A stretch of DNA of 64,000 nucleotides from a plasmid: sequence record NZ_CP041047.1; one strand, written 5' to 3'. Made by a program: the position numbers and the translations under genes. The notes beneath the pieces were generated by a model. The model had not been told where the DNA came from. It saw only the letters and a program-made list of their open reading frames with translations, and did no database searches. The number at the start of each line of letters is the position of its first letter. The first letter of the stretch is position 1. Positions 18,471-40,071 of the stretch are shown one piece after another.

Positions 18471-18593
18471 CGAAAAATTTAAGACAGCAAAATGCGGCCA
18501 TTTATATGTGCAAAAATATGAGCCGGTTTATCCGGCCCATCAGAATGAAAAGGAATTTTATGCAGGTCTGTTAAAGACCTGCTGGGAGGTTAG

Positions 18594-19788
18594 GGAAGGT
18601 GCGAATAAGCAGGTCATTTCTTCCCAAGCTGACTCGCTGATTAAAATTTCGCGGATCTGGGCCGATTTTTTTCCCGCAAACACATCGAATCAGCCTATTT
18701 AGGCTATTTTTTCCACCATTTCTGGCGTTATTTCCGGTTTTTACTGAGATCTCTCCCACTGACGTATCATTTGGTCCACCCGAAACAGGTTGGCCAGGGT
18801 GAATAACATCGCCAGTTGGTTATCGTTTTTCAGCAGCCCTTGTATCTGGCTTTCACGAAGCCGAACTGCCGCTTGATGATGCGAAACGGGTGCTCCACCC
18901 TGGCACGGATGCTGGCTTTCATGTATTCGATGTTGATGGCCGTTTTGTTCTTGCGCGGATGCTGCTTCAAGGTTTTTACCCTGCCGGGACGCTCGGCGAT
19001 CAGCCAGTCCACATCCACCTCGGCCAGCTCCTCGCGCTGTGGCGCTCCTTGGTAGCCGGCATCGGCTGAGACAAATTGCTCCTCTCCATGAAGCAGATTA
19101 CCCAGCTGATTGAGGTCATGCTCGTTGGCCGCGGTGGTGACCAGGCTGTGGGTCAGGCCACTCTTGGCATCGACACCAATGTGGGCCTTCATGCCAAAGT
19201 GCCACTGATTGCCTTTCTTGGTCTGATGCATCTCCGGATCGCGTTGCTGCTCTTTGTTCCTGGTAGAGCTGGGTGCCTCAATGATGGTGGCATCCACCAA
19301 AGTGCCTTGGGTCATCATGACGCCTGCTTCGGCCAGCCAGCGATTGATGGTCTTGAACAATTGACGGGCCAGTTGATGCTGCTCGAGCAGGTGGCGGAAA
19401 TTCATGATGGTGGTGCGATCCGGCAGGGCGCTATCCAGGGATAATCGGGCAAACAGGCGCATGGAGGCGATTTCGTACAGGGCATCTTCCATGGCACCGT
19501 CGCTCAGGTTGTACCAATGCTGCATGCAGTGAATACGCAGCATGGTCTCCAGCGGATAGGGCCGTCGGCCATTGCCCGCCTTGGGATAAAACGGCTCGAT
19601 GACAGCGGTCATATTCTGCCATGGCAGAATCTGCTCCATGCGGGAGAGGAAAATCTCTTTTCGGGTCTGACGGCGCTTAGTGCTGAATTCACTATCGGCG
19701 AAGGTGAGTTGATGGCTCATGATGTCCCTCTGGGATGCGCTCCGGATGAATATGATGATCTCATATCAGGAACTTGTTCGCACCTTCC
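18594..19788 (-). mobile_element. IS5-family element (ISKpn26-like), copy 1, 1195 bp, 16-bp terminal inverted repeat GGAAGGTGCGAA(T/C)AAG
   Basis: Terminal sequences GGAAGGTGCGAATAAG ... CTTGTTCGCACCTTCC. The internal sequence is nearly identical to copy 2 except for a 1-bp deletion. Confidence 0.9.
18830..19720 (-). pseudogene. IS5-family transposase, frameshifted near the C-terminus by a 1-bp deletion (cagcagccctt where copy 2 has cagcagcccctt)
   Basis: ORF is 296 aa, against 326 aa in copy 2; the proteins are identical up to ...ARYKG. Confidence 0.8.
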
Positions 19789-20086
19789 CTATTTGTGCGA
19801 TTACATCGCTATTTTGGGAAATATTCCACTAAAGCCCCCAAAACATGCAAAACTATTTCGCCTTATTTTGAACCGCCTTACTGCAAATCGGGCTGCATGC
19901 CCTTTCGCCACAGGTACTGTCTCTTTATTCACAACTCAAATAGAAATGTGACATAGTGCAAATTCACAATCGTCAGATCCGGACATAACTTGCAATAATT
20001 CGGAATTTATCCGACTTTATTTATATTAATTACGAAGCGCAAAAAAAATCGTTTTTCCCCTATGTCCTCACAGCGAAGTGATAACT

Positions 20087-37640: not shown

Positions 37641-37699
37641 AGCGTATTTCCTGCGAAGGTGTGTGCTGTTAGTGCGAGCCAGTATCCAACTGGCGCTAA

Positions 37700-38895
37700 G
37701 GAAGGTGCGAATAAGCAGGTCATTTCTTCCCAAGCTGACTCGCTGATTAAAATTTCGCGGATCTGGGCCGATTTTTTTCCCGCAAACACATCGAATCAGC
37801 CTATTTAGGCTATTTTTTCCACCATTTCTGGCGTTATTTCCGGTTTTTACTGAGATCTCTCCCACTGACGTATCATTTGGTCCACCCGAAACAGGTTGGC
37901 CAGGGTGAATAACATCGCCAGTTGGTTATCGTTTTTCAGCAGCCCCTTGTATCTGGCTTTCACGAAGCCGAACTGCCGCTTGATGATGCGAAACGGGTGC
38001 TCCACCCTGGCACGGATGCTGGCTTTCATGTATTCGATGTTGATGGCCGTTTTGTTCTTGCGCGGATGCTGCTTCAAGGTTTTTACCCTGCCGGGACGCT
38101 CGGCGATCAGCCAGTCCACATCCACCTCGGCCAGCTCCTCGCGCTGTGGCGCTCCTTGGTAGCCGGCATCGGCTGAGACAAATTGCTCCTCTCCATGAAG
38201 CAGATTACCCAGCTGATTGAGGTCATGCTCGTTGGCCGCGGTGGTGACCAGGCTGTGGGTCAGGCCACTCTTGGCATCGACACCAATGTGGGCCTTCATG
38301 CCAAAGTGCCACTGATTGCCTTTCTTGGTCTGATGCATCTCCGGATCGCGTTGCTGCTCTTTGTTCCTGGTAGAGCTGGGTGCCTCAATGATGGTGGCAT
38401 CCACCAAAGTGCCTTGGGTCATCATGACGCCTGCTTCGGCCAGCCAGCGATTGATGGTCTTGAACAATTGACGGGCCAGTTGATGCTGCTCGAGCAGGTG
38501 GCGGAAATTCATGATGGTGGTGCGATCCGGCAGGGCGCTATCCAGGGATAATCGGGCAAACAGGCGCATGGAGGCGATTTCGTACAGGGCATCTTCCATG
38601 GCACCGTCGCTCAGGTTGTACCAATGCTGCATGCAGTGAATACGCAGCATGGTCTCCAGCGGATAGGGCCGTCGGCCATTGCCCGCCTTGGGATAAAACG
38701 GCTCGATGACAGCGGTCATATTCTGCCATGGCAGAATCTGCTCCATGCGGGAGAGGAAAATCTCTTTTCGGGTCTGACGGCGCTTAGTGCTGAATTCACT
38801 ATCGGCGAAGGTGAGTTGATGGCTCATGATGTCCCTCTGGGATGCGCTCCGGATGAATATGATGATCTCATATCAGGAACTTGTTCGCACCTTCC
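37700..38895 (-). mobile_element. IS5-family element (ISKpn26-like), copy 2, 1196 bp, intact
   Basis: same terminal inverted repeats as copy 1, same orientation. Confidence 0.9.
37847..38827 (-). CDS. IS5-family DDE transposase (326 aa, intact)
   Basis: full length, InsH-like protein. Confidence 0.9.
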
Positions 38896-40071
38896 TTAGT
38901 ACACCGGGTGCAGCTGAGTCTCTTCAGTTTCACCATTCTGCTGGTTAGCGCCATCGGTATCGGCATCAGTCGCATCGTCAGCACCGCCGTTGTTTTCAGC
39001 ACTATCACCGTCGTTGTCACCATTAGCTTCAGCATCTTCTGCCTGTTTTGCTGATTCCAGTTCAGCCAGGGTAGCCATCAGAGTACGGGCCATTTCAGGA
39101 GTCAGGCGTAAGACGACTTCTTCCGGCACGGTTTCCGTAATTTCGATCTGATTTTCATGCTCACCTTCCGGCTGCGGCGGGATCTGGTCGCGCAGCTGGC
39201 TCAGGGTTGGCAACAGGCTGTCGAAGGTTTTACGGATAACTTTCGGTTTCAGGCCAGTCTTTTTCTTGGAACTCACGAATTTGGCAGTGACGCGGGTTTT
39301 CCCAGCTCCTTCTGCCTTTTTCAGGGATTCCATCAGGACTTCATACGGGTCGCGGTCAGTACCCTGACATTCGTTAATAACGTCAACGGCAACGTCACCA
39401 GATACCTTATCTTCTTTCACCAGCATCTTGATGCTGAAGTCAGCGTTTGCCAGCACGATACTGCGGCGAACGGTGACCAGAGAGACACCCAGACGCTGAG
39501 CAATCGACTCAATGGTGTGACCCCAGCCAATCAGGCGCTTGAAGCCTTCAGCGCGTTCCACCATCTTCAACTGAAGGGAGTTGGCGCTCTCGATCATGTT
39601 GTAGACTTCTTCGTCCTTGCCGCCTTCAAATTCCTCGACGGTGATTTTCTGGAAGCTCGCGCCCTCAGCAATCGCCATCATCAGGCCAGCAAAACGGTGG
39701 TGGCCATCAATGATTTTCAGGCGGGTTACGCCTTCCACTACTACTGGTTTAACGCGGATGACAGGCACTGACTGAGGACGTTCCAGATAAGCGTGTTTGA
39801 ACATTACCGCACGGTCATAATTTACGTCGCGGAGGTTCAGTCCCTCTTCCACAAACAACCAGTACGGGCTCACCGCAAAGACGTTGTTACGCCCGATATC
39901 GGCTTCTTCGAACTGTTCCGTATTGCCGCTTTTACGCGCTTTGGTTACGAAATCGCTCAGTGCTCGGAGTGATGATGGCGCTTTGTCTAAGCTGCGCATC
40001 AGTACCGCAGCGCCTTCCAGATTTTCCAGGGTACGGCTTTGTTCGAAGATAGCTTTAACGTCGGTGTTCAT
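38896..40071 (-). CDS. ParB-like nuclease-domain protein (391 aa) with acidic low-complexity C-terminal tail
   Basis: ParB/Srx N-domain IIDGHHRF. The stop codon TAA overlaps the TTAG target duplication of the IS5 composite element. Conserved motif 77 bp upstream. Confidence 0.6.
   Translation of the reverse strand: MNTDVKAIFEQSRTLENLEGAAVLMRSLDKAPSSLRALSDFVTKARKSGNTEQFEEADIGRNNVFAVSPYWLFVEEGLNLRDVNYDRAVMFKHAYLERPQSVPVIRVKPVVVEGVTRLKIIDGHHRFAGLMMAIAEGASFQKITVEEFEGGKDEEVYNMIESANSLQLKMVERAEGFKRLIGWGHTIESIAQRLGVSLVTVRRSIVLANADFSIKMLVKEDKVSGDVAVDVINECQGTDRDPYEVLMESLKKAEGAGKTRVTAKFVSSKKKTGLKPKVIRKTFDSLLPTLSQLRDQIPPQPEGEHENQIEITETVPEEVVLRLTPEMARTLMATLAELESAKQAEDAEANGDNDGDSAENNGGADDATDADTDGANQQNGETEETQLHPVY

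Follow-up and report, generated by a model that had tools for sequence, protein, structure and literature searches.

Foreign Core Chromosome Between Two ISKpn26 Copies on an Enterobacterial Plasmid: Insertion at a Single TTAG and Probable Later Trimming

Introduction

How does a block of core chromosomal genes come to lie on a plasmid between two copies of the same insertion sequence (IS), and is the unit seen today the one that originally moved? The question is raised by the plasmid record NZ_CP041047.1, of which we analyzed a stretch of 64,000 nucleotides (hereafter the window). In it, two directly oriented copies of ISKpn26 enclose 17.9 kb of DNA carrying malT, glpRGE, glpD, the glycogen operon glgPACXB and asd. 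An initial annotation of this DNA had read the IS-gene-IS unit as a 20.3-kb composite transposon that moved whole. Comparison with related plasmids, metagenome contigs and native chromosomal loci leads to an account that we regard as highly probable, namely that an IS-bounded segment of a donor chromosome was inserted into the plasmid by transposase and was afterwards trimmed to its present length.

Materials and Methods

Plasmid searches were run against PLSDB (72,556 plasmids). The query for the empty site comprised 2,400 bp, that is, 1,200 bp of left flank and 1,200 bp of right flank joined via one TTAG. Cargo genes were called by profile search with NCBIfam equivalog or subfamily models at their curated cut-offs. 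Longer versions of the cargo were obtained by exact-protein look-ups with Asd, and the native contig L099 (81 kb, Logan run SRR36465261) by an exact-protein look-up with MalT. The other sequences referred to by handle include L103 (a 35-kb metagenome scaffold, ERZ28667596 scaffold_247), L089 (a 288-kb contig of the JAOCJO010000002.1 type, with 6 similar places) and L091 (a 26,410-bp contig with IS ends at both sides).

Results and Discussion

Insertion at a Single TTAG

The element and its boundaries are made up as follows.

18590..18593, no strand: TTAG target-site duplication, left copy (empty site GGGAGG-TTAG-TACACC, present a single time in p705SK3_1 and shared by at least 58 other plasmids)
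18594..19788, minus strand: ISKpn26 copy 1, 1195 bp (transposase open reading frame 18830-19720, covering NF033581 profile positions 1-267 of 285)
19789..37699, no strand: captured chromosomal block, 17,911 bp, from a native CTAT in the malP-malT intergenic region to a native CTAA 59 bp upstream of asd
37700..38895, minus strand: ISKpn26 copy 2, 1196 bp (transposase open reading frame 37847-38827, 326 amino acids, covering NF033581 profile positions 1-285 of 285)
38896..38899, no strand: TTAG target-site duplication, right copy (its TTA, read on the opposite strand, forms the stop codon of a ParB-like gene)

Repeat finding and direct reading bear out the coordinates at which two direct IS5-family (ISKpn26-like) copies had been said to bracket a 17.9-kb block of core genes. 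The sole difference between the copies is one C fewer in the C-run at 18837-18839 of copy 1. Both open with GGAAGGTGCGAATAAG and close with the complement of GGAAGGTGCGAACAAG, these being the terminal inverted repeats, and the form common to both ends is GGAAGGTGCGAA(T/C)AAG. The flanking bases, which we read directly, are also those given earlier, with TTAG on both outer sides (18590-18593 and 38896-38899), CTAT inside copy 1 (19789-19792) and CTAA inside copy 2 (37696-37699).

Matching 4-bp flanks alone are weak evidence in the case of ISKpn26, because its target preference (YTAR) makes such matches common. Copy 2 of the sister plasmid pF2119-1, for instance, has TTAG/TTAG flanks, yet it borders chromosomal DNA on the left and plasmid DNA on the right. 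The argument is carried instead by the empty site, whose query matched 105 plasmid records, with 93 of the 105 covering at least 80% of the query in one place. Among the matches listed, 58 of 60 are a single uninterrupted 2,400-bp alignment at 100% identity, hence at least 58 plasmids have the two flanks joined by one TTAG, which is what the initial annotation had expected of relatives lacking the insert. Their hosts are Citrobacter (most records), Klebsiella, Enterobacter, Salmonella, Kosakonia and Raoultella. In p705SK3_1, where the empty site was read directly, the sequence is ...CTGCTGGGAGG-TTAG-TACACCGGG.... Since relatives without the insert join the flanks through exactly one TTAG, all DNA between the two TTAGs of the window came in at one point, and the 4-bp duplication is genuine. 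A chance match of the two TTAGs, as the YTAR preference might produce, is excluded by the exact contiguity of the flanks in the empty-site plasmids.

The name ISKpn26 rests on 99-100% identity of the window copies to thousands of plasmid copies labelled 'IS5-like element ISKpn26 family' by the Prokaryotic Genome Annotation Pipeline (PGAP). The element is known to make 4-bp direct repeats, a CTAG repeat being the case given (PMC8023600). The transposase of copy 2 matches the IS5-family model NF033581 over its full length (E = 2.2e-109), and Pfam DDE_Tnp_1 and DUF772 are recorded for a protein identical to the copy 2/IS5 transposase, which places it among the DDE transposases of the IS5 family. 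The open reading frame being full length, the copy 2 transposase gene is intact. Copy 1, in a difference that the initial annotation did not remark upon, has a transposase frame of 296 amino acids vs. 326 in copy 2, the result of a 1-bp deletion and frameshift. The C-run has 4 C in copy 2 and in all sister plasmids, which carry an intact 1196-bp ISKpn26 at the position of copy 1, and 3 C here; the missing base may reflect a true mutation or an error in sequencing the homopolymer.

A Nested Series of Cargo Lengths

The sister plasmid pF2119-1 has the same left junction (GGGAGGTTAG|IS), the same IS|CTAT-malT junction and the same right junction (IS|TTAGTACACC) as the window. Its cargo, however, continues in native order for 5,998 bp beyond asd, via yhgN, gntU, gntK, gntR, a pirin gene and an oxidoreductase gene, before copy 2 is reached. 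The cargo of L089 is longer than that of the window by 7,645 bp, with bactofilin and acetyltransferase genes added, and that of L091 extends to an hcp-like gene, for a total of 26,136 bp (8,225 bp more than the window). The cargo lengths thus form a nested series of 26.1, 25.6, 23.9 and 17.9 kb, of which the window is the shortest. The DNA shared by all versions is at least 99.95% identical to the window and the IS-CTAT-malT junction is common to them, and from this level of identity we conclude that there was one common capture. The carriers number roughly 25.

The left end of copy 2 is preceded by CTAA in the window type and by TTAG in each of pF2119-1, L089 and L091. The junctions of the window, pF2119-1 and L089 are native YTAR sites in the longer relatives; for the L091 junction there is no longer relative for comparison. 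Because contiguous chromosome, once lost, cannot be regained, the short forms are read as deletions of a longer ancestor. The original insert would then have been at least 28.5 kb (26,136 + 2 × 1,196), the 20.3-kb unit of the window would be its shortest deletion derivative, and the position of the IS on the asd side would be secondary. The claim that the IS originally sat 59 bp upstream of asd accordingly fails, as the sister plasmids run 5,998 to 8,225 bp further.

Copy 2 is the copy involved in every rearrangement among the sister plasmids, with 4 inner and 3 outer junctions among the relatives. In pAR0468_1 its right end abuts window position 41773, and in L089 it abuts 41167, so that the backbone from 38896 to 41772 or 41166, respectively, is gone. 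These outward deletions remove the ParB-like gene and its neighbours.

A different kind of change is seen in pHSW1412-1 (positions 8014-14970), where an IS1B lies inside ISKpn26 copy 1 and positions 283-1196 of the latter are left. To the left of copy 1 an IS5 copy (91% identical) and EAL-domain and methyl-accepting chemotaxis genes stand as a replacement, and the right-hand ParB-like gene is cut by IS26.

Gene Content and Foreign Origin of the Cargo

The genes of the captured block are the following.

20087..22792, plus strand: malT, maltose regulon activator, 901 amino acids (NF003420, 1598.7 bits, full length)
22833..24828, minus strand: glpR (22833-23591), glpG (23609-24439) and glpE (24499-24828) (NF008154, NF008155 and NF001195, full length)
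25070..26575, plus strand: glpD, aerobic glycerol-3-phosphate dehydrogenase, 501 amino acids (NF008899, 831 bits)
26819..36271, minus strand: glycogen operon, with glgP (26819-29266), glgA (29286-30719), glgC (30811-32097), glgX (32112-34088) and glgB (34088-36271) (NF011562, NF001899, NF001947, NF002983 and TIGR01515, above cut-offs, full length)
36534..37640, minus strand: asd, aspartate-semialdehyde dehydrogenase, 368 amino acids (TIGR01745, 729.7 bits)

All 11 of these genes (MalT, GlpR, GlpG, GlpE, GlpD, GlgP, GlgA, GlgC, GlgX, GlgB and Asd) are full length, each above the curated NCBIfam cut-off, in agreement with the content first proposed for the block (malT, the glp genes, a complete glycogen operon and asd). 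The distances to the block edges had been put at 290 bp for malT and 59 bp for asd. The latter is exact when counted to the asd ATG (37640), while on the malT side the distance is 298 bp to the ATG (20087), or 289 bp to an upstream GTG. A promoter scan finds promoter-like sites in the 298 bp kept upstream of malT; the native DNA kept upstream of asd amounts to 59 bp only.

The block is ~100% identical in three PLSDB plasmids, from Citrobacter freundii, Enterobacter asburiae and Enterobacter mori, and 78-79% identical to the native Citrobacter and Enterobacter loci. The nearest species representative is Phytobacter sp. V69 at 89.2% nucleotide identity, and because the best identity there stops at 89%, the donor species is not among the species representatives. 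A much closer match is the contig L099, which is 99.53% identical to the block over 13 kb and has the context feoB-feoC...malQ-malP-malT-glpR..., with no IS. At the place that corresponds to the copy 1-cargo junction it reads TTTTG-CTAT-TTGTGCG, which is the empty site on the chromosome. As to whether the block is resident or foreign, a matter that the initial annotation had left to be checked, the answer is foreign (~79% to Citrobacter/Enterobacter, 99.53% to L099), and on these identities the cargo is chromosomal DNA of a species of Enterobacteriaceae other than the usual hosts.

The scaffold L103, 99.985% identical to L099, opens (positions 1-46) with an ISKpn26 right end that has the same orientation and sits at CTAA. 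The donor lineage thus appears to carry ISKpn26 in the malP-malT intergenic region, at a site other than that of the plasmid junction. This IS either belongs to the chromosome of the donor species or marks a second capture that took place independently.

The hosts would gain from the insert a second, ~21% diverged set of the cargo genes. Typical hosts own ~21% diverged copies of all of them. On the simplest reading, the cargo is a redundant passenger. Of the earlier description of the block as a second, mobile copy, the foreign second gene set therefore probably stands, and the mobility of the unit does not, as all occurrences trace to one insertion site.

Proposed Course of Events and Alternatives

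According to the account that we favor, a chromosomal segment lying between two direct ISKpn26 copies would have been inserted by transposase action into a large Citrobacter-type RepB plasmid, the target being a lone TTAG with the parB-like stop codon on one side and the dnaB operon on the other, and a 4-bp duplication would have been made. The original cargo would have run from the malP-malT intergenic region through glpRGE, glpD, glgPACXB, asd, yhgN, gntUKR and the pirin, oxidoreductase, bactofilin and acetyltransferase genes to the hcp-like gene. Later, the left end of copy 2 would have been joined to ever nearer YTAR sites in the cargo, giving rise to the nested lengths, through either intramolecular transposition or a further ISKpn26 insertion followed by IS-IS homologous recombination. 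In plasmids from patients, DNA has been found deleted by recombination between direct ISKpn26 copies (PMC5142620). No second insertion site of the unit was found, all plasmid-borne occurrences recovered sharing the same left or the same right junction, and its spread since insertion probably took place by plasmid transfer between Citrobacter and Enterobacter with no further transposition.

As regards what is usually asked of a composite transposon, the sequence points to two copies of the same IS with intact outer ends, one intact transposase gene, and a duplication with its empty site. Movement as a unit at two or more sites is not among the findings, and the present unit is not the inserted unit. 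Of the claim that the IS-gene-IS unit transposed whole, the composite structure with a true duplication therefore holds, and the 20.3-kb size does not, since the sisters are longer; nor does the duplication prove that the transposition took place in one step. It is not unique to one-step transposition, because IS insertion followed by IS-IS recombination, or cointegrate formation followed by excision, gives the same signature. Three routes in all yield the same final structure and TTAG duplication, a possible third one being simple IS insertion at the TTAG and then recombination with an IS-bounded chromosomal circle. We prefer the one-step route, since no relative with a lone ISKpn26 at this TTAG is found, the number of events is the fewest, and ISKpn26 is present near malT in the donor lineage; that the original event was a one-step composite transposition, occurring while the plasmid resided in the donor, is nevertheless a proposition for which we judge the chances to be evenly balanced.

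Several observations weigh against the favored account or parts of it. The IS of L103 lies in the malP-malT spacer 35 bp further in than the plasmid junction, and so not at the same site. A donor junction of the form native flank-CTAT-IS gave 0 exact matches in a scan of metagenome contigs, and a donor chromosome that carries ISKpn26 at the CTAT site did not come to light. The ancestor is a reconstruction, as the longest cargo and an intact outer right junction did not turn up together in any record. That L089 shares the left junction is something we infer, the basis being a MalT look-up that merged L089 with a window-like place. Finally, among the sister copies there is no annotated glgP in pF2119-1 (5-bp indel), no annotated glgC in L092 and a split glgP in L093, and these apparently disrupted genes hint at relaxed selection or at sequencing errors.

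The strongest competitor, somewhat less probable than the one-step route but a serious possibility, is a two-step capture resembling F-prime formation. Here a single ISKpn26 would first insert at the plasmid TTAG, the plasmid would then fuse with the donor chromosome near malT, either because the IS transposed replicatively to the CTAT site or because it recombined homologously with an ISKpn26 of the chromosome, and excision would follow on the far side of the hcp-like gene, at a YTAR site or at an IS; the first, simple insertion would be what the outer TTAG pair records. The final structure and duplication would be the same as those observed. One end (IS-CTAT-malT) is fixed and the other variable, at a native YTAR wherever this can be checked, which is the classic F-prime pattern, and the captured genes are in donor order (as in L099 and the species representatives) with four nested far ends. 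Recombination between ISKpn26 copies in plasmids is, moreover, documented (PMC5142620). The large size of the inserted unit also speaks for this route. Composite transposition becomes less efficient as the unit gets longer, and cointegrate formation is possible for some members of the IS5 family (IS903). On the other hand, 0 PLSDB records cover at least 80% of a flank-IS-flank query, so that the single-IS precursor at this TTAG is not found there, and the sole relative with a lone ISKpn26, pCF20-4P-1-1, has it elsewhere, inside the gene for a 169-amino-acid protein and in opposite orientation. The route also needs more events than the one-step route, and ISKpn26 is not known to transpose replicatively.

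A bolder version of the same idea takes the nested series itself as a natural record of F-prime formation by ISKpn26, with fusion near malT and several independent excisions at YTAR sites. We consider this improbable. IS5-group elements are generally treated as cut-and-paste, and replicative or intramolecular transposition by such an element would be implied if this reading were true. Excision of the essential asd would in that case have made the plasmid indispensable in the donor, a natural balanced-lethal arrangement, and the divergent extra MalT and GlpR could cross-regulate the maltose and glycerol regulons in new hosts.

Taken literally, the initial annotation has the 20.3-kb unit pre-existing in the donor chromosome and transposing in its present form. 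The perfect TTAG duplication, the intact outer IS ends and the one intact transposase gene would all fit, but pF2119-1 has the same outer and malT-side junctions and yet 5,998 bp more chromosome, L089 and L091 are longer still, and several independent captures at the same TTAG, with cargo at least 99.95% identical, would be needed, all of which makes this version very unlikely. An assembly artefact, in which plasmid and chromosome were misjoined across ISKpn26 repeats and the block is the host's own locus, can be dismissed as next to impossible: 1.2-kb IS repeats do often cause misjoins and the homopolymer difference of copy 1 could be a sequencing error, but these junctions are shared by three complete circular plasmids that come from different laboratories and different species (C. 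freundii, E. asburiae and E. mori), additional contigs of 270-290 kb have them too, the block is just ~79% identical to the Citrobacter and Enterobacter chromosomal loci, and the empty-site flanks are contiguous with exactly 4 bp duplicated, unlike the product of a misjoin. It is the agreement of several independent complete assemblies on these junctions that excludes a chimera.

Relation to Known Elements

We found no description of this element in the literature on ISKpn26, on plasmid glycogen genes or on the plasmid backbone. It is a familiar kind of event in a new instance, and no new mechanism or gene function is revealed. Like Tn903 (IS903, IS5 family), Tn10 and Tn5, the element has a pair of the same IS around unrelated cargo, intact outer inverted repeats, at least one intact transposase gene and a target-site duplication of the length typical of the IS around the whole unit. 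Unlike them, it carries 18-26 kb of housekeeping chromosome and no resistance gene cargo, its IS copies are direct, it is known from one insertion site only, and its present form is a deletion derivative.

A closer parallel in terms of the IS is the ISKpn26 composite structure around rmpA/iroN in K. pneumoniae pKP845_1 (PMC12889024), which has the same IS, plasmid-borne cargo and IS-associated deletions within. Its cargo, in contrast, consists of virulence genes (7 kb) on another plasmid, and there is no cargo sequence in common. As in F-prime or cointegrate-excision plasmids, contiguous chromosome in native order lies here between IS copies, one end is fixed and one variable, and the essential asd has been carried off; unlike the F-prime case, no integrated or single-IS intermediate is found in PLSDB, the plasmid is not F, and the mechanism is one that we infer. 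The ISApl1-mcr-1-ISApl1 element (Tn6330), whose 'birth and demise' has been described (PMC5821093), likewise consists of chromosomal DNA of another genus captured by an IS pair and moved to plasmids with IS-associated decay. In Tn6330 it is the IS copies that are lost, and many sites are occupied, whereas here both IS copies are kept, the cargo is trimmed and one site is known.

Glycogen genes have been met before on plasmids, a 'glycogen synthesis cluster' being an accessory region of Klebsiella IncFIB-type plasmids (PMC7319535). The two cases share glgP, glgA, glgC and glgB as accessory DNA on enterobacterial plasmids, often near ISKpn26. Identity of the two was rejected, as the match amounts to ~84% identity over ~29% of the query, much of it from the IS, and the Klebsiella cluster often comes with pgm and without the malT-glp-asd context.

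The element offers a natural case in which ~26 kb of core chromosome, with an essential gene, two global regulators and the complete glycogen pathway among its contents, was lifted by an IS pair onto a plasmid family that circulates in Citrobacter, Enterobacter, Klebsiella and Salmonella; both empty sites (plasmid and donor chromosome) and graded decay products were recovered. It may serve in teaching, and in annotation, where the block is not to be taken for host chromosome or misassembly. Two cautions follow from it. For a target-specific IS such as ISKpn26, a 4-bp flank match alone is no proof of unit transposition, and a present-day composite transposon may be a trimmed remnant of what moved.

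Plasmid Surroundings of the Insert

The backbone genes on the two sides of the insert are these.

16103..18404, minus strand: backbone operon for hypothetical proteins of 169 and 122 amino acids and DnaB helicase (16103-17515) (annotation of identical sequence; DnaB NCBIfam models)
38896..40071, minus strand: ParB/RepB/Spo0J-like backbone gene, 391 amino acids (PGAP annotation of the identical pF2119-1 gene; Pfam HTH_ParB, 23.1 bits vs. a cut-off of 22.6)

The insert had been placed between the stop codon of a ParB-like nuclease gene and a helicase operon. The position is right; the word 'nuclease' is not sustained, the one match being a marginal one to HTH_ParB. The ParB-like gene is undamaged by the insertion. 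In window positions 1-6000 an IS21 element and a RepB replication initiator are found, 100% identical to several Citrobacter plasmids, and on the right-hand side of the insert, window and pF2119-1 are collinear (99.98% identity) across the ParB-like, ParA/ParB, HNH, RES-Xre and CcdAB genes. With RepB, ParAB, CcdAB and DnaB present, the earlier reading of a plasmid context on both sides is upheld, and by gene content and collinearity the surroundings of the insert are plasmid backbone.

Two further differences from relatives were seen in this backbone. At 12964-15168 an inverted IS1 pair (12964-13731 and 14403-15168) encloses a 671-bp fragment matching lacY-adjacent DNA of other plasmids. This 2.2-kb structure stands in place of ~10 kb of backbone of pF2119-1 and other relatives, including nearly all of a PAPS-reductase-family gene. 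At ~59934-59936 there is a 401-bp deletion relative to pF2119-1 within a hypothetical backbone gene of 205 amino acids (WP_007372289), bounded by a 3-bp TAG microhomology.

ISKpn26 Junctions in Other Plasmids

In pJX10-1, ISKpn26 is flanked by a perfect CTAT/CTAT duplication, and for this reason CTAT, the sequence at the malT-side junction, is a genuine ISKpn26 target. Some Klebsiella plasmids showed, with the flank-IS-flank query, an apparent match of ~20 bp beyond the right IS end (compared with window 38896-38918). A right flank shared with K. pneumoniae plasmids was rejected as an alignment effect, as pJX10-1 reads a different flank, CTATCTAAAGG / ATAGGAAACC.

Apparently simple insertions of ISKpn26 or IS5 with non-identical 4-bp flanks occur in pCF20-4P-1-1, pCF1807-2 and pHSW1412-1, examples being TTAG/CTAG at an empty site TTAG, and TTAG/CTAA. 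Directly next to the IS these insertions usually have a G on the left and a C on the right, and the central TA alone is duplicated every time. Near-identical 11-mers abut the right end of ISKpn26 at two independent junctions, CTATTTGTGCG (19789-19799), which is the malT-side junction in all plasmids, and CTATATGTGCG (41167-41177), the backbone site joined to the IS in L089. The likeness may be due to chance or to an extended target preference.

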